Shown here: positions 7,585 through 60,558 of the stretch, piece after piece
Position numbering within the stretch: position 1 is the first letter of the stretch
How the letters are laid out: each line of letters starts with the position of its first letter
DNA from: Thermoanaerobaculia bacterium
GTDB taxonomy: Bacteria; Acidobacteriota; Thermoanaerobaculia; UBA5066; Gp7-AA6
Length of the DNA: 64,000 nucleotides
NCBI GenBank assembly: GCA_035498835.1
Contig: DATJZU010000158.1
Span: 5,778 to 69,777, forward strand
Direction: 5' to 3'
Translations under genes and position numbers: made by a program
Notes under the pieces: model-generated
Database searches by the model: none
What the model saw: the letters and a program-made list of their open reading frames with translations, nothing else
Told to the model about the DNA's origin: nothing

Positions 7585-10500
7585 ATGACCGAGTCACCCG
7601 AAAGACGGGGCCGGAACTTGCCGCGATGGGTGGCGGGCGTTGCCCTGACCCTCGCGGCCGTCGCGGGTCTCGCGCAGCAACAGTCCGGAAACATCTACGG
7701 CCGGTGCGTGGACGAACAGCAGGCGGTCCTGCCGGGCGTCTCCATCACGCTCGAAGGCGGCGGCGCGCCGCAGACGACCTTCACCGACGCCAAGGGCGCG
7801 TTTCACTTCCTGAACCTCGCGCCGGGCAGCGAATACGTCCTCACGGCCGTGCTCCAGGGCTTCTCGACCGTGCGCCGCGAGCGCGTCTCCGTCACGCTCG
7901 GGAAGAACACGGACCTCACGATTCCGATGGCGCTCTCGGCCGTCGCGGCGACGGTCACCGTCTCGGGCGACACGCCGCTGCTCGACACGCGCAAGACCGA
8001 CAGCGGCCACACGTTCACGCAGTCGGAGCTCACGGAGATCCCGACGGCGCGCGACCCGTGGGTCATCCTGCAGCAGAGCCCGGGCGTTCTCGTCGACCGC
8101 GTCAACGTGGGCGGCAGCCAGGGCGGCCAGCAATCCAACTACGTGGGCAAGGGAACCGATGGATCGCAGAACTCCTGGAACGTGGACGGCGTCGTCATCA
8201 CGGACATGGCCGCGCTCGGCGCCTCGCCCACGTACTACGACTTCGACGCGTTCGAGGAGATGCAGGTCACGACCGGCGGAACGGATCCTTCCGTGTCCGT
8301 GCCCGGCGTCACGCTCAATATGGTGACCAAGCGCGGCACGAACACGGTCCACGGCTCGACGCGCGTCTTCATCACGGACGAGAAATTCCAGTCGACGAAC
8401 ATCCCTCAGGAAGCCATCGACCAGGGCATCACGAAGACCAATCGCATTTCCGGAATCCAGGACTACGGCGTGGAGGCCGGAGGACCCATCGTTCCCGACA
8501 AGATCTGGCTCTGGGGCAGCTACGGCCGCAGCCAGATCAATCTCCAGCAGACCGGCGGCGCGCTCGACCGGACGACGCTCGAGAACGAGAGCGGCAAGCT
8601 GAACATCCAGCCGATCTCCTCGAACTCGGCGACGCTCTTCTTCTTCCGCGGCGACAAGATCAAGCAGGGGCGCAGCGCCGGACCGACGCGCCCGCAGGAA
8701 ACGTCCTGGGACCAGAGCGGCCCGACGACGATCTGGAAGGGTCAGGACGAGCAGGTCTTCGGCACGACGTCCGTGCTCGAGGTGTCGTGGTCGTATCCCC
8801 GCAACACGTTCGCGCTCACGCCGGAGGGCGGACTGAACATCGATGCCTACCGCGACGCCAACCGCGTCTGGCACAATTCGTACCTCTTCTACTCGACCGA
8901 CCGGCCCTCGCACCAGGTCGCGGCGAACGGATCGTTCTTCGCGCACACCGGATCGCTCGGACACGAGATCAAGTACGGCTTCGGATATCGCACGCTCGGG
9001 CTCTCGTCGATCACGGTTTGGCCCGGAACGGGCAACGTCGTGCGCGAGAACCTGGGCCAGGTCTACCTCACGCGGCCGAAGATCCTCAATGCCTCAATGA
9101 CGTACTGGGACGGATTCATCGGCGACACGGTGACCGCGAACAACCTGACCGTCAACTTCGGCGTCCGCTACGACGAGCAGTACGGCCACAACGACCAGAG
9201 CATCGCGCCCGCCAACCCGCTCTTTCCCGAGCTCCTGGGACAGCTCGACTACCCGGGCGGCCCCTCGGAATTCAAATGGAAGAACTGGCAGCCGCGCGTC
9301 GGAGCGACCTACGCCTTCGGCAAGGGGAACAAGACCGTCGCGCGGGCTTCCTATTCGCGCTTCGCCGACCAGCTCGGGACGGCGCAGGTCAGCTTCGACA
9401 ACCCGAACGGCTATTACCCGATCCTTCGATACGAGTTCCACGACCTGAACGGCGACCACATGGTCGAGCGCGGCGAGCTCGGAAACTTCGTCGGCGCGAA
9501 CTACGTGGACCCGAGCAACCCCAATTCGGCGTCGTCGCCGAACATCACGGATCCCAACCTGAAAGCGCCCATCACCGACGAGTTCATGGCGGGGCTCGAT
9601 CAGGAGATCCTGCCGCAGTTCGTCGCCGGTCTGACCTACACGCACCGGATCCGCAAGGACCTCATCTACACGACCTTCCCGGGCTATACCTCGGCCGACT
9701 ACGTGCAGATCGACCCCGCAACGCTCGACCCGAGCGAGTGCACGCCCGGGACCCACGGCGGTTGCCTCGCCTACGACTACCTGGGCCACGTCATCGGCGA
9801 GTCCGGCCCGATCTACGGCGTCGCCAACTACACGGGAAACAGCGGCCTCTTCCAGACGAACCGTCCCGGTTATCGCCAGACCTACGACGGCGTCGAGCTC
9901 CAGGCGACCAAGCGCCTCTCGGACCGCTGGATGGCGCACGCGTCGTTCACGTGGTCTAACTGGCGCCAGAACAAGGGCGAATGCTTCGACCCGACGAACT
10001 CCGTGCAGGTCGGAAGCCCCGTCACCACGACGGGCAGCAACTCCTGCGCCGACGACATCGCCTACTACGGAGGGGCGGGCATCGGCGGGAACTTCGCGAA
10101 CGTGTACATCAACTCGAAATGGAGCTTCAACATCAACGGCCTCTATCAGCTCCCGCTCGGCTTCAACCTGGCCGCGAACTTCTTCGGGAGGCAGGGCTAT
10201 CCGATCCCCTACTTCGTCGAGGTCGAGACGGGCGACGGCACGCCGACGTCGCTCAAGGACGTGGCGGTCGGAAAAGCCGATGACTTCCGCAACAAGTCCG
10301 TCTATCAGCTCGACATGCGCCTCGAGAAGACGATCCCGCTCTTTTCCAACCAGGCGAACCTGACCTTTTCGGCGGACGTCTTCAACCTGCTCAACTCCGG
10401 CACGGTCCTCCAGGTCCAGAACGCCTCCGGCGTGGCCAACCAGATCTTCGAGATCCAGAGCCCGCGCGTGATCCGATTCGGAGCGCGGCTGTCCTTCTGA
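7585..10500 (+). CDS. TonB-dependent receptor with N-terminal carboxypeptidase-regulatory-like domain
   Basis: Signal peptide, a CarbopepD_reg-like fold (VLPGVSITLEGGGAPQTTFTDAKGAFHFLNLAPGSEYVLTA), a plug region, and a long beta-barrel ending in ...RVIRFGARLSF. Confidence 0.85.
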   Translation: MTESPERRGRNLPRWVAGVALTLAAVAGLAQQQSGNIYGRCVDEQQAVLPGVSITLEGGGAPQTTFTDAKGAFHFLNLAPGSEYVLTAVLQGFSTVRRERVSVTLGKNTDLTIPMALSAVAATVTVSGDTPLLDTRKTDSGHTFTQSELTEIPTARDPWVILQQSPGVLVDRVNVGGSQGGQQSNYVGKGTDGSQNSWNVDGVVITDMAALGASPTYYDFDAFEEMQVTTGGTDPSVSVPGVTLNMVTKRGTNTVHGSTRVFITDEKFQSTNIPQEAIDQGITKTNRISGIQDYGVEAGGPIVPDKIWLWGSYGRSQINLQQTGGALDRTTLENESGKLNIQPISSNSATLFFFRGDKIKQGRSAGPTRPQETSWDQSGPTTIWKGQDEQVFGTTSVLEVSWSYPRNTFALTPEGGLNIDAYRDANRVWHNSYLFYSTDRPSHQVAANGSFFAHTGSLGHEIKYGFGYRTLGLSSITVWPGTGNVVRENLGQVYLTRPKILNASMTYWDGFIGDTVTANNLTVNFGVRYDEQYGHNDQSIAPANPLFPELLGQLDYPGGPSEFKWKNWQPRVGATYAFGKGNKTVARASYSRFADQLGTAQVSFDNPNGYYPILRYEFHDLNGDHMVERGELGNFVGANYVDPSNPNSASSPNITDPNLKAPITDEFMAGLDQEILPQFVAGLTYTHRIRKDLIYTTFPGYTSADYVQIDPATLDPSECTPGTHGGCLAYDYLGHVIGESGPIYGVANYTGNSGLFQTNRPGYRQTYDGVELQATKRLSDRWMAHASFTWSNWRQNKGECFDPTNSVQVGSPVTTTGSNSCADDIAYYGGAGIGGNFANVYINSKWSFNINGLYQLPLGFNLAANFFGRQGYPIPYFVEVETGDGTPTSLKDVAVGKADDFRNKSVYQLDMRLEKTIPLFSNQANLTFSADVFNLLNSGTVLQVQNASGVANQIFEIQSPRVIRFGARLSF

Positions 10501-48189: not shown

Positions 48190-48969
48190 CTAGTCCACCC
48201 GGACCTGCACCCGTTCGATCCCAGTGGCCTTGCCCGTCGCCTCGTCCACGGCGACGATCGCGCCCGAGAGCCGGATGTCGCGCTTCGCCGTCTCGAACGA
48301 CCGCGGCGTCTGGGACAGGAACTTCTCGATGATCCGGTCCTTCGAGAAGCCGATGATGCCTTCGTACGCGCCCGTCATTCCGACGTCGCTCTGATAAGCC
48401 GTGCCGCCCGGCAGGACCGTTTCGTCGGCCGTCGGCACGTGCGTGTGCGTGCCGAGAACGGCCGAGACGCGCCCGTCGAGATACCAGCCCATGGCCATCT
48501 TCTCGGAGGTGGCCTCGGCGTGCATGTCCACGACGATGACCTTCGCCTTCAGGCGCGCGAGCTCCTCGTCCGCGACGCGAAACGGCGAGTCGGCGTTGGC
48601 CGGCATGAAGACCTGGCCCTGCAGGTTCACGACCCCGACGGGAATGCCGGCGGCCGTCTGCTGGACCGTCACACCGCGCCCGGGGTTGCCGGGCGGGTAG
48701 TTGGCGGGCCGCAGCAGCCGGTCCGAGGAGTTCAGCGAGTCGTAGATCTCCTTCTTGTCCCAGATGTGGTTGCCGGAGGAGAAGACGTCGATCGGCATCT
48801 TCGAGAGCTCGGCGAAGAGCTCGACGGTCAGGCCGAAGCCGCCGGCCGCGTTCTCGACGTTGACGATCGTGAAGTCGATCTTCTTGCGGTCGATGACGGA
48901 AGTTAGTGCGTCCTGAAGCGCCCGGCGTCCAGGAGAACCGACGACGTCGCCGACGAAGAGGATGTTCAA
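48190..48969 (-). CDS. ymdB: TIGR00282/YmdB family metallophosphoesterase
   Basis: MNILFVGDVVGSPGRRAL ... GNHIWDKKE ... GTHTHVPTAD. Conserved position downstream of rny. Confidence 0.85.
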   Translation of the reverse strand: MNILFVGDVVGSPGRRALQDALTSVIDRKKIDFTIVNVENAAGGFGLTVELFAELSKMPIDVFSSGNHIWDKKEIYDSLNSSDRLLRPANYPPGNPGRGVTVQQTAAGIPVGVVNLQGQVFMPANADSPFRVADEELARLKAKVIVVDMHAEATSEKMAMGWYLDGRVSAVLGTHTHVPTADETVLPGGTAYQSDVGMTGAYEGIIGFSKDRIIEKFLSQTPRSFETAKRDIRLSGAIVAVDEATGKATGIERVQVRVD

Positions 48970-49004
48970 GTGAAGAACCCTTGCTCCTTGGTCCGTTGTT
49001 CCCG

Positions 49005-49095
49005 ACCGAGGACTGTGGACTTGGGACTGAGGACTTTACTGGCTTGAGCCACTTGAGTCATCGGTCCTCTGTCCTCTGTCCTCTGTCCTCAGTCG
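49005..49095. repeat. structured intergenic element: (NNGGACT)x4 - 27 nt spacer - (GTCCTCT)x4 inverted heptamer arrays
   Basis: GAGGACT GTGGACT TGGGACT GAGGACT ... GTCCTCT GTCCTCT GTCCTCT GTCCTCA, ending 2 nt before the rny stop codon. Confidence 0.7.
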
Positions 49096-50664
49096 TTACC
49101 TCGCGTACTCGACCGCCCGCGTCTCGCGGATGACCGTCACCTTGATCTGTCCCGGATACTGCAGCTCAGCCTCGATCTTCTTGGCCACGTCGCGCGAGAG
49201 CCAGAGCGCCTCGTCGTCCGTGACACGGTTGGCCTCGACCACGATGCGCAGCTCGCGGCCGGCCTGGACGGCGAACGCCTTCTGGACCCCCTTGAAGCTG
49301 TCCGCGATGTGCTCGAGCTTCTCGAGGCGCTTGACGTAGGTCTCGAGGATCTCGCGCCGCGCGCCCGGCCGCGCCGCCGACAGTGCGTCCGCACCGTTGA
49401 CGAGGACCGCCTCGAGCGACCGCGGCTCGTAGTCGCCGTGATGGCACTCCATCGCGTGGATGACCTCGTTCGACTCGCCGAACTTCTTCAGGACCTCGCG
49501 CCCGAGCTCGAGGTGCGTGCCTTCCATCTCCCGGTCGATGGCCTTGCCGATGTCGTGGAGGAGTCCCGCGCGCTTGGCCACCTCGACCTTGCCGCCGAGC
49601 TCCGAGGCCATGTTCGTCGCGAGCCAGGAAACTTCCTTCGAGTGCTGAAGCACGTTCTGTCCGTAAGACGTCCGGAACTTCAGGCGTCCGAGGAGCTTGA
49701 TGAGCTCCGGGTGGAGGTCGGCGATGCCGAACTCGAGCGCGCACGCCTCGCCCTCCTGCCGGATCCGCTCCCAGAGCTCCGAGCGCACCTTCTCGACGAT
49801 CTCCTCGATGCGCGCCGGGTGAATGCGGCCGTCCACGATCAACTTCTCGAGCGCCAGGCGAGCCACCTCGCGGCGCAGCGGCTCGAAGGCCGAGATGACG
49901 ATCGCCTCCGGAGTGTCGTCGATGATGAGGTCCACACCGGTCGCGGCCTCGAGCGCGCGGATGTTTCGGCCCTCGCGCCCGATGATCCGACCCTTCAGGT
50001 CGTCCGACGGCAACTCGACGACCGAGACCGTCGCTTCGACGACCACGTCGGAAGCCAGTCGCTGGATCGCCATCCCGATGATGTGCCGCGCCTTCTGCGT
50101 GGACTGCTCGAGCGCCTCTTCCTCGATGCGCCGCATGAGCCCCGCGCCCTCGACGCGCGCCTCGTTCTCGATCGAACGGACGAGATCCCGCTTCGCGTCC
50201 ACGGCGGTCATTCCGGAGATCTGCTCGAGGCGCTTCTTCTGCTCCTCTACCAGCCGCGAAGCCTCGGTCTGCGTCTCCTCCACCTTGCGCTGCTGGTCGG
50301 AGAGCGCGCGCTCCTTGCGCGTGAACTCTTCCTCGCGCCGCTCCTGGGTGGCGAGCTTCCGGTCGAGGTTCTCTTCCTTCGCGACGACGCGGCTCTCGAG
50401 CGCCGCGACCTCCTGGCGCCGGGCGGCGATCGACTTCTCGAACTCGGCCCGTGCCGCCAGCACCTTTTCCTTGGCCTCGACGGACGCCTCGCGGAGTTTC
50501 CCCTCGGCGGACTTCGCGGCCTCGGCGCGGATCCGCTCGGCCTCGGTGCGCAGCGCCGAGCGCTCGCCCGAGAGACTCCTCCGGGCCATGACGAACGCAA
50601 TCGCCCCAAAGACGGCGGCCACGGCCAGGCCCGCCGCGATGGCGATCGCCAGAGATGTACTCAT
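49096..50664 (-). CDS. rny: ribonuclease Y
   Basis: N-terminal TM, coiled coil, KH domain ([17 protein letters not shown]), and HD domain ([12 protein letters not shown]...HH). Confidence 0.9.
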
Positions 50665-57821: not shown

Positions 57822-57856
57822 GAAAAAGAAAGACGCGGGTCGCCCCGCGTCTTTCG
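57822..57856 (-). terminator. intrinsic terminator after the tRNA-Val pair: GACGCGGG-GCGA-CCCGCGUC + UUUCUUUUUCU
   Basis: 8-bp GC stem, tetraloop, and a U-rich tail on the minus strand. Located 35-40 nt upstream of the thrS ATG. Confidence 0.6.
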
Positions 57857-57865
57857 GTCCGCCGT

Positions 57866-57941
57866 TGGTAGGCGCTAACGGGTTCGAACCGTTGACCTCT
57901 ACCGTGTGAAGGTAGCGCTCTACCAGCTGAGCTAAGCGCCT
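57866..57941 (-). tRNA. tRNA-Val (anticodon CAC)
   Basis: 76-nt cloverleaf folded by hand. 7-bp acceptor stem, anticodon loop UUCACAC, T-loop TTCGAAC, and an encoded CCA. Confidence 0.9.
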
Positions 57942-57957
57942 TCGTGTCGAACGAAGT

Positions 57958-58032
<75 letters not shown>

Positions 58033-58295: not shown

Positions 58296-59282
58296 ATGAA
58301 GCTCGTCATCCAACTGCCGGCCTGGAACGAGGAGGAGTCGCTCCCCCGGACGCTCGCTGCCCTGCCGCGCCGACTGGCTCCCTTCCGCGAAATCGAGATC
58401 CTCGTCGTGGACGACGGATCGAGCGACGCGACGGCGGAGGCGGCCCTCGCCGGCGCCGACCGGGTCGTGCGGCTCCCCGCCCACGCGGGCCTCGCCGCGG
58501 CGTTCCGCGCCGGGCTCGAGGCGGCACTCGCCGCGGGCGCCGACGTCATCGTCAACCTCGACGCCGACGGCCAGTACGACCCGGGCGACATTCCGGCGCT
58601 CGTCGCGCCGATCCTCGCGGGGCGCGCCGACCTCGTCATCGGCGACCGCGGGCCGGGGACGCTCGCACACTTCTCCGCCTCCAAGCGCCTCCTGCAGCGG
58701 CTCGGCAGCTGGGTCGTCGAGCAGGCGGCCGGCATCGAGGTGCCCGACGCGACGTCGGGCTTCCGCGCTTTCTCGCGCGAGGCGGCGCGGAAGGTCAACG
58801 TCTTCTCGCGGATGACGTACACGCTCGAGACGATCATCCAGGCGGGATCGAAGGGCCTGCGCGTCGCCTCGGTCCCGGTGCGAGCCCACGAGACGCACCG
58901 CCGGTCGCGCCTCCTCTCGTCGGTCCCGCACTACGTGGCGGTTCAGGCGGCGAACATCCTGAGGATCACGGCGCTCTACAAGCCGCTGAAGCTCTTCTCG
59001 GCGGCCGCGGCCGTCTTCCTGCTCGGAGGCGTCGCGCTCGGCGCGCGCTTTCTCTACTACTTCTTCTTCACGCCACGCGCCGCCGGGCACGTCCAGTCGC
59101 TCATCCTCGCGGCCGTCCTGATCCTGGTGGGCGCCCTGACGTTTCTCATCGCGCTGCTCGCGGACCTCGTCTCGATCAACCGGACCCTGTTGGAAGAGTT
59201 GCGCTTGAGTGGTGGGCCGTCAGCCGTCGGCTCTCAGCTCTCAGCCAGAAAGACCGAAACCACGCCTCCGGCTGACAGCTGA
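58296..59282 (+). CDS. glycosyltransferase family 2 (polyprenol-phosphate sugar synthase DPM1/GtrB-like) with C-terminal TM
   Basis: LVIQLPAWNEEESL, DDGSSD, and DADGQYDP. The C-terminal 25 aa are encoded by the palindromic repeat element. Confidence 0.8.
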   Translation: MKLVIQLPAWNEEESLPRTLAALPRRLAPFREIEILVVDDGSSDATAEAALAGADRVVRLPAHAGLAAAFRAGLEAALAAGADVIVNLDADGQYDPGDIPALVAPILAGRADLVIGDRGPGTLAHFSASKRLLQRLGSWVVEQAAGIEVPDATSGFRAFSREAARKVNVFSRMTYTLETIIQAGSKGLRVASVPVRAHETHRRSRLLSSVPHYVAVQAANILRITALYKPLKLFSAAAAVFLLGGVALGARFLYYFFFTPRAAGHVQSLILAAVLILVGALTFLIALLADLVSINRTLLEELRLSGGPSAVGSQLSARKTETTPPADS

Positions 59283-59313
59283 AAGCTGACAGCCGATAGC
59301 TCCTCTCAGGCCC
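59211..59313. repeat. REP-like imperfect palindromic element, copy A
   Basis: Left arm GGCCGTCAGCCGTCGGCTCTCAGCTCTCAGCC and right arm GGCTGACAGCTGAAAGCTGACAGCCGATAGC are near-reverse-complements. The element is built from CAGC/GCTG-containing 7-mers. Confidence 0.6.
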
Positions 59314-59884
59314 AATCCCCCGCCTTCCGCGACAGAACCGGCGCCCCCTCGAGGAGCGTCAGAATCGCCTTTGTGCTGTCCGCGACCGCGAAAATGATCC
59401 GGTCTTCTCCGCGCACGTAGTTGTTCCGGATCGCCGCCTCGAACTGCGCGAGCAGCGGATCGAAATAGCCGCCGATGTTCGCGATGACGATCGGTTTGCC
59501 GTGGATCCCCATCTGCTTCCACGTCAGCATCTCGATGATCTCTTCCATCGTCCCGAAGCCGCCCGGAAAGGCGACGAACGCGTCGGAGAGCTCGAACATC
59601 CGCTGTTCCCGCTCGTGCATCGTCGAGACCAACTGAAGCTCCGTCAGCCCTCGATGCGCCGACTCCCGGCCTTCGAGCGCCTTCGGGATCACGCCCGTGA
59701 CTTGCCCGCCGGACGCGAGCACCTCGTCGGCAATCGCGCCCATGAGGCCCCTGCTCGAGCCGCCGTAGACGAGACCGACGCCGCGTTTCGCGAGCTCGCG
59801 CCCGAAAGCGCGGATTTCCTGTTCGACGGCGGCGTTCCTGGAGTCGCTGCTGCTGCAGTAGACGCAGACGCGTTTCAAATCCAT
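59306..59884 (-). CDS. LOG family protein (TIGR00730; nucleotide 5'-monophosphate phosphoribohydrolase)
   Basis: PGGFGTMEE motif and the GGxxGxMG Rossmann signature. Confidence 0.85.
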   Translation of the reverse strand: MDLKRVCVYCSSSDSRNAAVEQEIRAFGRELAKRGVGLVYGGSSRGLMGAIADEVLASGGQVTGVIPKALEGRESAHRGLTELQLVSTMHEREQRMFELSDAFVAFPGGFGTMEEIIEMLTWKQMGIHGKPIVIANIGGYFDPLLAQFEAAIRNNYVRGEDRIIFAVADSTKAILTLLEGAPVLSRKAGDWA

Positions 59885-59893
59885 GCGCGGATC

Positions 59894-60469
59894 TTACCCG
59901 GCCCGACGCACGAAGCGGCTGCCCGGAGTGTCGAGCGGCACTCCTTTCCGGCACAGCGGACACTCCGCCTCCGGCCACGCCGGAACCGAGAGCGGGAGAA
60001 GCGACCGTGCCGGAACCGCGAAGGCGCCCGCCGGGAGACCCCGATCCACGACCGAGCCGACGGCGACGACGGCTCCTCCCGCGTTCTCGACGGCGGCCGC
60101 CGCCTCGCGCGTCGACTTGCCCGTCGTGAAAACGTCCTCGACGACGACGGCGCGCTCGCCCGAATCGAGCGCGAAGCCGCGGCGGAGCACGAAGGCGTCT
60201 TCCGGACGCTCGACGAAAACGAACCGCGTCCCGAGCGCGCGCGCCGTCTCGTGCCCGATGATCAATCCGCCCAGAGCCGGCGAGACGACGACCTGCGGCG
60301 CGAACTCGCGCAGCTTGTCCGCGAGCTCGCGCCCCGCGGCCTCGGCGCGCGCCGGCCACTGGAGAAGGCGCGCACACTGCAGGTACGTGTCCGAGTGAAG
60401 GCCGCTCGAGAGGCGGAAGTGGCCGCGCAGCAGCGCGCCCGTGTCGAGAAAGTCCTGGAGGGAGAGCAC
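59894..60469 (-). CDS. pyrE: orotate phosphoribosyltransferase-like (type I PRTase fold) with C-terminal CxxC
   Basis: GHFRLSSGLHSDTYL N-terminal OPRT-like motif and a PRPP-binding loop (VVVEDVFTTGKST). GTG start. A 9-nt gap separates it from the LOG gene. Confidence 0.7.
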   Translation of the reverse strand: MLSLQDFLDTGALLRGHFRLSSGLHSDTYLQCARLLQWPARAEAAGRELADKLREFAPQVVVSPALGGLIIGHETARALGTRFVFVERPEDAFVLRRGFALDSGERAVVVEDVFTTGKSTREAAAAVENAGGAVVAVGSVVDRGLPAGAFAVPARSLLPLSVPAWPEAECPLCRKGVPLDTPGSRFVRRAG

Positions 60470-60475
60470 GAAAAG

Positions 60476-60558
60476 AAGTTATCAGCTATCGGCTATCAGC
60501 TATCAGCTATCAGCCAGACTCCGAGCTGATGGCTGAGAGCTGACGGCTGACGGCCCAT
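60476..60558. repeat. REP-like palindromic element, copy B (inverted relative to copy A); contains (ATCAGCT)x5 tandem heptamers
   Basis: The reverse complement of B aligns with A over both arms (ggccgtcagccgtc[a/g]gctctcagc ... ggctga[t/c]agctga[t/a]agctga[t/c]agccgatagct). Confidence 0.6.

Follow-up and report, generated by a model that had tools for sequence, protein, structure and literature searches.

Is a periodic hairpin that stands between the gene for RNase Y and its partner a device of that operon, or a copy of something that occurs throughout the genome? We asked this of a 90-base palindrome of 7-nucleotide (nt) units, here called element A, that separates rny from ymdB in a 64,000-nt stretch of a Thermoanaerobaculia bacterium genome (GenBank assembly GCA_035498835.1, contig DATJZU010000158.1, positions 5,778 to 69,777; this whole stretch is the window of the text below). 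A preliminary description, made from the letters alone, had suggested that the palindrome might govern the processing or stability of the rny–ymdB transcript, or might be an array of half-sites for a DNA-binding protein. Our analysis points elsewhere: the same architecture, in varied sequence, occurs at two unrelated gene ends of the window and at dozens of loci in related genomes, which argues against any device particular to rny–ymdB. Element A is likely to be one copy of a genome-wide class of slippage-prone heptad palindromes, and not to have been built for this gene pair.

A heptad palindrome directly after the rny stop codon

The sequence of the junction, read directly, has four 7-base units in each arm of the palindrome. 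Its parts and the two flanking genes are as follows, with repeat units in plus-strand letters.

48190–48969, minus strand: ymdB, encoding a YmdB-family metallophosphoesterase of 259 amino acids, with a TTG start (list of open reading frames, ORFs; Pfam YmdB, 3.6e-104)
48970–49002, minus strand: leader of ymdB, outside the big stem, with a Shine–Dalgarno-like AAGGAG at 48989–48984 (sequence)
49003–49007, minus strand: outer stem base CGAC plus one unpaired C (sequence, inverted-repeat search, minimum-free-energy structures)
49008–49035, minus strand: heterogeneous arm, GAGGACT (49008–49014), GTGGACT (49015–49021), TGGGACT (49022–49028) and GAGGACT (49029–49035)
49036–49063, minus strand: loop of 28 nt, with the near-palindrome TGGCTTGAGCCA at 49040–49051 (sequence, folding)
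49064–49091, minus strand: homogeneous arm, three GTCCTCT (49064–49084) and one GTCCTCA (49085–49091) (Tandem Repeats Finder, TRF)
49092–49095, minus strand: GTCG, the other outer stem base, adjoining the rny stop (sequence, folding)
49096–50664, minus strand: rny, encoding RNase Y of 522 amino acids, with its stop TAA at 49098–49096 (TTA on the plus strand) (ORF list; Pfam RNase_Y_N, KH_1 and HD)

The outer CGAC (49003–49006) pairs with GTCG (49092–49095), and the palindrome thereby extends beyond its heptamers. Much of what the preliminary description had read from the letters stands: four heptamers do face four complementary ones (49008–49035 and 49064–49091), Pfam confirms both gene identities, and the spacer does contain a near-palindrome, TGGCTTGAGCCA, which is palindromic at 10 of 12 positions and is predicted to form a small inner hairpin within the loop. 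Two of its distances need correction, since the spacer is 28 nt long (49036–49063) and not 27, and the array does not end 2 nt before the rny stop, from which the last heptamer lies 4 nt away and the stem itself 0 nt. The order in the co-transcript is UAA-CGAC-(UGAGGAC AGAGGAC AGAGGAC AGAGGAC)-loop-(AGUCCUC AGUCCCA AGUCCAC AGUCCUC)-GGUCG, followed by the 33-nt leader and the ymdB start; the 5′ arm of this rny-sense RNA is 49064–49091, whose number of units is polymorphic, and the 3′ arm is 49008–49035.

The periodic, inverted arrangement goes beyond chance. TRF reports a period of 7 with 4.4 copies and 95% matches at 49064–49094, an inverted-repeat finder returns 32-nt arms that are 78% complementary, and the pattern GAGGACNGAGGAC, with at most one mismatch allowed, is matched seven times against 1.19 expected, a count that none of 100 shuffles reached. 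For the minus-strand (rny-sense) RNA the predicted folding energy is −51.7 kcal/mol (z = −4.33; none of 200 shuffles was equally stable), which bears out the long periodic stem, with GGAC cores paired to GUCC cores, that had been proposed from the letters. About 26 pairs make up the predicted stem, which is broken by four internal loops and contains no uninterrupted run longer than 11 bp; a substrate of RNase III or RNase Y would offer about 20–24 bp of double-stranded RNA. The plus-strand (antisense) RNA folds at −56.7 kcal/mol (z = −5.25), and each of the two DNA strands, folded singly, reaches about −23 kcal/mol (z about −5).

Element A is neither coding nor a canonical terminator, and here too the earlier reading holds: the 3′ flank, GGGAACAACGG, contains no U tract, and a terminator consensus scan of the window did not report the element, whereas it did detect a canonical hairpin-plus-U terminator at 57855–57828 (minus strand), after the downstream of two tRNA-Val genes. 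The host therefore does use ordinary intrinsic terminators. An intrinsic (Rho-independent) terminator was rejected as a candidate for element A: the G+C-rich stem is present, but the loop measures 28 nt as against 3–8 nt, and the U tract is missing. Rfam 15, run over the whole window at gathering thresholds, passed only two tRNAs; at a permissive E-value over 48800–49300 it gave only sub-threshold microRNA-precursor matches, which are chance matches to a long hairpin. The two tRNA-Val genes, with anticodons CAC and GAC, occupy 57866–58032 on the minus strand.

The ymdB leader (48970–49002) resembles a decayed third heptad array, AACGGAC CAAGGAG CAAGGGT, and the equivalent position in the related locus L013 (7655–7686) holds a clear array, AAGGACT AAGGACT AAGGACA, with a TRF row of its own. 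The ymdB Shine–Dalgarno sequence therefore seems to derive from a repeat.

The same architecture at unrelated gene ends

TRF finds three heptad palindromes in the window, element A and two others.

59216–59301, no strand assigned: element B, CGTCAGC CGTCGGC TCTCAGC TCTCAGC, a 24-nt loop, then GCTGACA GCTGAAA GCTGACA GCCGATA
60478–60556, no strand assigned: element C, five units of the TATCAGC type, a 10-nt loop, then four GCTGANN

Element B sits between convergent genes, for a GT2 glycosyltransferase (plus strand) and a LOG-family protein (minus strand), and element C occupies the spacer between two minus-strand genes, from the stop of that for a sigma-54 response regulator (60559) to the start of that for a phosphoribosyltransferase (60469); each of the two elements lies within 2–5 nt of a stop codon. 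Their predicted folds consist of 6-bp helices broken by a single mismatch at every seventh base (z from −3.3 to −6.7). Heptamers thus differ among loci of one genome, GAGGACT in element A as against GCTGANN in B and C. Between B, read on the plus strand, and C, read on the minus strand, the 5′ arm TGGGCCGTCAGCCGTCRGCTCTCAGC, the 3′ arm order GCTGAYA GCTGAWA GCTGAYA GCCGATA and a non-periodic end, TGGGC, are all shared, while the loops (24 and 10 nt) are unrelated; judged by these common letters, B and C are copies of one element. They are oppositely oriented and flank the LOG-family and phosphoribosyltransferase genes (59306–60469). The GT2 glycosyltransferase ORF (58296–59282, plus strand) runs 24 codons into element B before its stop, with the tail GGPSAVGSQLSARKTETTPPADS, and the C-terminus of this protein is therefore apparently repeat-encoded.

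For a wider view we retrieved 80 loci with the Rny protein, all from metagenome-assembled genomes (MAGs) of Acidobacteriota, mostly of the class Thermoanaerobaculia and with a best identity of 98%. In a census of tandem arrays over these loci and the window (925 kb in all; arrays of at least 3.5 copies and at least 80% matches), 65 of the 109 strong arrays have a period of 7. Arrays of period 6 and 9 are located within ORFs and in no case have an inverted partner, and period 8 appears as a minor non-coding variant of the heptad type. An inverted partner (at least 70%, within 130 nt; null 99th percentile 0.68) accompanies 47 of 82 heptamer arrays, the other 35 being single and unpaired. About four units, or 30 nt, per arm is typical, with 4.x copies in 50 of the 82, a peak that is partly inflated because imperfect three-unit arrays score below the TRF cut-off used. 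Many elements begin 0–25 nt past a stop codon, with a median of about 10 nt in the relatives, as placed by the rough gene calls of a crude ORF caller based on G+C content at third codon positions, which missed some genes.

The heptamers of this class are highly diverse, yet within a genome several loci can share one heptamer and even the order of its variants. In L073 and L039, as in elements B and C, copies share the unit order of their arms around completely different loops, and an arm related to those of B and C is present in another genome, L004. Copies with the same arm-specific unit order, then, occupy different loci of one genome. Heptamers that lack GG runs, for example GCTGACA, GTAAGCC and TTAGCTC, keep about four units and the same anatomy.

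Two side observations belong to this class. Octamer arrays of about four to five units stand at L007 8547–8584, L012 8485–8519 and L006 8489–8518, some 900 nt downstream of the rny stop and so, by rough inference, at the end of ymdB, with CCGATCAC common to L007 and L012; an octamer inverted pair directly follows rny in L036 (7526–7629). An 8-nt variant of the heptad class therefore exists. Contigs also end inside heptamer arrays (at the start of L004, L211 and L213 and at the end of L098), which suggests that heptad arrays probably cause breaks in MAG assemblies.

Turnover of units, arms and loops

Close comparisons reveal how these elements change. The spacer is identical to that of the window in three of four short-read contigs whose Rny and/or YmdB protein is identical to the window's; the fourth, L202, retrieved by exact matches to both proteins, is shorter by exactly one GAGGACA unit, with three units in place of four. 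Seven contigs encode the identical LOG-family protein. In this set element C is longer by one GCTGATA unit in L213 (six against five) and altered at the unit level in L212, and element B is essentially unchanged, apart from substitutions of single bases in L210 and L212. Whole units are added to arrays and lost from them, as replication slippage predicts. The preliminary description had reserved simple slipped-strand expansion for an element with neither structural conservation nor other occurrences; that test does not apply here, because other occurrences exist and the structure recurs, while the one-unit changes that slippage would produce are seen directly.

Two pairs of orthologous elements, each in well-conserved surroundings, extend the comparison to the arms and loops.

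L073 4302–4392 and L076 3474–3554: orthologous pair, flanks about 95–97% identical
L073 3840–3935 and L076 3010–3108: orthologous pair, flanks about 95–97% identical

In one pair, a single position of the unit has been substituted throughout: each of the four units of the 5′ arm has C in place of G there, and each of the four units of the 3′ arm has G in place of C. In the other pair the arms are almost the same, and it is chiefly the loop that differs, having diverged to about 50% identity. The complementary change in every unit of both arms indicates that units and arms are homogenised together, either by templating or by selection for pairing. The two arms change in concert, complementarity being kept, and loops turn over faster than arms.

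The rny–ymdB junction in related genomes

How faithfully is such an element kept at this junction? Among 25 close relatives (Rny at least 81% identical), 11–13 carry heptad arrays in the rny–ymdB spacer, built of at least nine different heptamers that include GCGGGAT, GGGAGTC, GTAAGCC, CGGGACT, GGAAGTC, GTAAGAC, GTAGGTG and CTGTCAG; 11 of the 25 have a spacer of 0–27 nt and no element. Relatives with and without an element are intermixed on the Rny tree, where L007, for one, has a 132-nt element and its sister L003 none, and the stem base lies 0–10 nt from the rny stop in most relatives. The structure, whose conservation the preliminary description had proposed to check, recurs at the junction; the sequence is not conserved.

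The element of the window is found again at the junction of just two relatives, L013 and L001, and the loop core GTGGCTCRAGCCAG is common to all three. The unit order of the heterogeneous arm is kept in L013 and, as its reverse complement, in L001, a single MAG assembly in which the element is reverse-complemented relative to rny: it matches that of the window at 83% and that of L013 at 89.5% as the reverse complement, as against 75.5% and 79% in direct orientation, and the degenerate arm AGTCCTC AGTCCCR AGTCCAC AGTCCTC matches L001 at 32 of 33 positions in reverse-complement orientation only. The whole palindrome can flip relative to the flanking genes. This flip, the variety of heptamers and the relatives that lack the element all speak against a device specific to rny–ymdB.

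Two further candidates for the history of the junction were tried and rejected. Descent in situ from one ancestral array would make the junction heptamers resemble one another, and they show no greater likeness than background (nearest-neighbour distance 1.67, against 1.39). Directional selection at the RNA level would favour the sense strand, and fold energies of sense and antisense at 16 junction elements show no bias (9 against 6). In lower-G+C relatives a heptad hairpin at the junction is followed by a run of T (L044 3409–3474, TTTTTT; L029 3089–3175, T-rich), which is the shape of a canonical intrinsic terminator.

The G-rich arm usually comes first

Arrays of the kind found in element A are common elsewhere. 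At least 120 metagenome contigs, of 35–73% G+C, contain (GAGGACN)3 arrays, and among the matches listed many are laid out as GAGGACT(n)-loop-AGTCCTC(n) and none encodes Rny or YmdB, so that the motif, which the preliminary description had known from this locus, is widespread and unconnected with the rny–ymdB operon. In one of these contigs, L112, GGGGACT and GAGGACT units are mixed in a single array.

Since a palindrome reads alike on both strands, the order of its arms is intrinsic to it. Of 35 pairs in the rny-locus set, 29 have the G-rich arm on the 5′ side; with orthologues removed the count is 25 of 31 (p = 9e-4), and where the skew is strong it is 17 of 18. Among the metagenome matches listed the G-rich arm is 5′ in 45 of 52 skewed pairs (one of 53 had no G/C skew), and in 16 of 18 of those from other heptamer families. 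Across many families, then, the G-rich arm comes first in about 85–95% of palindromes, element A included; this is the arrangement reported as “convergent” for Xanthomonas. A rare GAGGACT palindrome with the C-rich arm first lies at about 9259–9400 of L183, and has a separate G+C-rich hairpin, GGCGCCTCGCGGCGCC, in its loop. The rule might arise because a C-rich arm, if it emerged first in the transcript and stayed unpaired, would load Rho and be selected against; other candidate causes are template switching by fold-back of G-rich nascent strands, and dedicated synthesis of the G strand.

What element A may do, and what else it could be

If element A is a copy of this class, its position could be explained by a short, non-essential post-stop spacer that tolerates, and perhaps mildly favours, such a palindrome. 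The co-transcript would form a long imperfect stem-loop from the first base after the rny stop, and a terminating ribosome would have to open the base of the stem. Because the stem would part the cistrons by 126 nt, as against 0–27 nt in relatives, the likely translational coupling of the element-free relatives would be broken here. By analogy, element A would work most like the repetitive extragenic palindromic (REP) sequences and bacterial interspersed mosaic elements (BIMEs), as a dispersed imperfect palindrome after gene ends and inside operons; on that model it might form a barrier to 3′-to-5′ exonucleases that stabilises the upstream rny segment, and such a barrier could let the amounts of the rny and ymdB products differ without sequence-specific recognition. 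Of such recognition there is no sign, since the element is missing in about half of the relatives, stands in either orientation and shows no sense-strand bias. Element A probably acts only as a generic intercistronic stem-loop.

Several observations weigh against reading element A as a generic copy. The rny 3′ junction is enriched for heptad elements: 9 of 25 junctions hold one, compared with 20 of 216 gaps elsewhere (odds ratio 5.5, p = 8e-4), and arrays of period 7 or 8 lie no more than 150 nt from the rny stop in 19 of the 80 loci. Such an enrichment is not what a purely neutral model would lead one to expect. Pure slippage fails to explain either the G-rich-first rule or a unit order common to different loci. 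Four internal mismatch loops interrupt the stem, and of the two strands the antisense forms the slightly more stable fold; the roles as exonuclease barrier and in uncoupling are borrowed by analogy; and the inversion in L001 comes from one MAG.

The enrichment at the junction is what keeps an RNase Y guide as the main rival. As a dedicated processing determinant of rny–ymdB, the stem would either guide a cut by RNase Y, expected at the rny stop, or be cut by RNase III, so that the cistrons would be separated, their ratio set and rny perhaps autoregulated. The hot spot, with its 8-nt variants, and a stem base adjoining the stop codon fit this, and there is precedent in the saePQRS operon of Staphylococcus aureus, where a 24-bp intergenic duplex directs RNase Y to cleave 6 nt upstream and shifts the stoichiometry of the operon (PMC5449607), and in the co-transcription of rny and ymdB in Bacillus subtilis, with a reported polar effect (PMC3542257). 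We nevertheless consider it improbable, given the same architecture at unrelated gene ends, the close relatives that lack the element, the unrelated sequences and flipped orientation among those that have one, and the absence of a sense-strand bias in stability; moreover, the known autoregulation of RNase Y in B. subtilis works through the 5′ untranslated region and the 5′ part of the ORF, not the 3′ junction (PMC10303841). Unlikely rather than improbable, in our judgement, is a non-autonomous mobile element of REP/BIME kind, or of the kind of foldback elements and miniature inverted-repeat transposable elements (MITEs), brought in behind the rny stop by a transposase whose gene lies elsewhere, with the heptads as repeated transposase-binding units in terminal inverted repeats. 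Presence and absence between sister lineages such as L007 and L003, the occurrence of both orientations, the sharply set arm length of about four units, and the arm unit order and non-periodic ends shared by B and C and in L073 and L039, with a related arm in L004, are all features that such an element could produce. Its copies should not, however, differ wholly in their loops, even between orthologues, nor should unpartnered arrays be common, and a G-rich-first order across unrelated heptamer families is unexpected of arbitrary terminal repeats; read directly, elements A, B and C have no visible target-site duplication. A MITE with a conserved interior was rejected outright, since copies share arms and not loops and none of A, B and C is bordered by a direct repeat. 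A more modest claim does stand on the likeness of the arms, namely that these appear to have been copied entire between loci.

A terminator or attenuator between rny and ymdB, in the form of a factor-independent hairpin that dispenses with a U tract in a high-G+C host, seems to us a shade more improbable than a processing site. The hairpin is very stable, G+C-rich and placed directly after the stop codon, and T runs do follow the junction hairpins of the lower-G+C L044 and L029; against this, the window element combines a 28-nt loop with no U tract, the host has canonical terminators to use, and the conserved gene pair that encloses the element is contiguous (0–27 nt) in relatives, much as element C fills a spacer within an operon. 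Heptads of the form WATCACW, arrayed directly or inverted, are the binding sites of the omega protein of plasmid pSM19035, and an array of 7-bp half-sites for a DNA-binding protein such as this ribbon-helix-helix repressor would account for the 7-bp periodicity, the four units and the combination of direct and inverted repeats. Relative L022 even has AATCACA heptads (9260–9303), which fit the omega heptads, though this may be a coincidence. We rate this idea as very improbable, because a dedicated site should keep one heptad at every locus of a genome, and at a given locus from relative to relative, which is not the case here, and because the elements lie at gene 3′ ends, not promoters, and vary in unit number between strains. 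Least probable of all is a G-quadruplex-forming repeat, as proposed for the GGGAATC arrays of Xanthomonas and the GGGGAYT arrays of Nostoc: four units per array are indeed the minimum for a quadruplex (PMC4692102), yet heptamers with only GG runs, or with none, keep about four units and the same anatomy. For element A itself this candidate was rejected, since of its units GAGGACT, GTGGACT and TGGGACT only one has GGG, whereas at least four runs of at least three G are required. A long shot, though not as remote as half-sites or quadruplexes, is that a dedicated templated process writes heptad palindromes, which would then not be slippage debris, or, more mildly, that the elements at rny junctions have been co-opted as RNase Y guides. 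Such a process might, at equally long odds, extend the G strand at both 3′ ends of a break, or act by repair at a cleaved hairpin tip, and then join the ends. If true, templated writing would explain the 7-nt (rarely 8-nt) unit across phyla, the arms of about four units, the G-rich-5′ rule, and the reuse of genome-specific unit repertoires at many loci with unrelated loops.

Taking element A as a generic repeat copy carries a warning for annotation: a striking periodic hairpin beside an RNase gene resembles a bespoke riboregulator. The value of the finding lies less in the locus than in the rules that hold across the lineage, namely the G-rich-first order, heptamers without quadruplex potential, concerted arms and the hot spot at the junction. 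For the question why bacteria accumulate heptamer repeats, an old one that dates from the description of short tandemly repeated repetitive (STRR) elements in 1990, this lineage is a useful natural experiment. Any mechanism must account for a G-rich arm that comes first, about four units per arm, arms that change in concert while loops turn over, one-unit polymorphism and a position after stop codons; and the modest but significant preference for the rny 3′ end offers a concrete site at which to ask about effects on operon expression.

Relation to known repeat systems

The class itself is already known from Xanthomonas and cyanobacteria, poorly understood, and here documented in Thermoanaerobaculia. 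Element A has every descriptive feature of the intergenic heptamer-repeat kind, a form of simple-sequence repeat, except the G-quadruplex: at least three head-to-tail 7-nt units, dispersed non-coding arrays, a place near the 3′ end of an ORF, convergent inverted pairs with the G-rich arm first, and variation in unit number between strains. What is new here is that the G-rich arm is almost always 5′ and that the heptamers at this element cannot form G-quadruplexes. Heptamers are given as the most abundant long simple-sequence repeats in many bacteria, with polymerase slippage as the proposed cause, in the account of Mrazek (2007) relayed by PMC4679880 and PMC4692102.

The closest counterpart is the GGGAATC repeat of Xanthomonas, of which there are about 185 arrays per genome, with a mode of four units and about 90% of them intergenic (Rehm et al. 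2015, PMC4692102). These lie at a mean of 28 nt from the upstream ORF, 70 of 186 (70–75) form convergent inverted pairs capable of a stem-loop, their length varies between species, and they are unrelated to gene function and of unresolved role; a G-quadruplex has been proposed for them, as for Nostoc GGGGAYT, with four units as its minimum (PMC4692102). The elements described here share with them the 7-nt unit and its mode of four, the intergenic position near the end of an upstream ORF, frequent inverted pairs with the G-rich arm first, variation in length and sequence among close relatives and the lack of a link to gene function. GGGAATC itself forms arrays in L004 (1–55 and 315–418) and L003 (10695–10727). 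They differ in that many heptamers are in use, most of them incapable of a quadruplex, and in that the host belongs to the Acidobacteriota (Thermoanaerobaculia) and not the Gammaproteobacteria; concerted change of arms, inversion and single-unit strain polymorphism are documented here. Dozens of heptamers in one architecture argue against the G-quadruplex explanation offered for Xanthomonas and Nostoc.

In cyanobacteria the STRR1 unit is CCCCAGT. The STRR sequences of Calothrix and Nostoc are likewise tandem heptamers dispersed in intergenic DNA, and the NNGGACT of element A resembles GGGGACT; they differ in being often long and mostly direct arrays in low-G+C hosts, and inverted four-plus-four arrays beside stop codons do not define them. 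Heptanucleotide repeats of both genera are cited in PMC4692102 and PMC4679880, the Nostoc unit being GGGGA(C/T)T (PMC4692102). The TAACTGA direct repeats of marine Beggiatoaceae, cyanobacteria and Bacteroidetes, intergenic, in two to six copies and of unknown function (MacGregor 2015, PMC4679880), resemble our elements as intergenic heptamers of scattered phylogenetic distribution, but stand just upstream of start codons, are inverted in 1 of 170 sets and use one dominant heptamer per genome. Chloroflexus has (GATAGRA)n satellites (PMC6749651).

Beyond heptamers, the likeness is to the REP/BIME sequences of enterobacteria and pseudomonads, which are also dispersed extragenic palindromes after gene ends and inside operons, with imperfectly complementary inverted units and variable linkers, and for which stabilisation of mRNA and differential expression within operons have been proposed (PMC3733652). 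REP/BIME sequences differ in having no tandem 7-nt units, a palindromic unit of 20–40 bp with GTAG or CGTC conserved at one end, and a link to REP-associated tyrosine transposases (RAYTs); element A ends in CGAC and GTCG, and CGTC is confined to elements B and C, where it lies in the outer units. With the saePQRS guide of S. aureus, finally, element A shares a long double-stranded RNA in an intercistronic spacer, which there alters the stoichiometry of the operon; that guide differs in being a single conserved locus with experimental proof, and is not built of repeats, dispersed or free of orientation.

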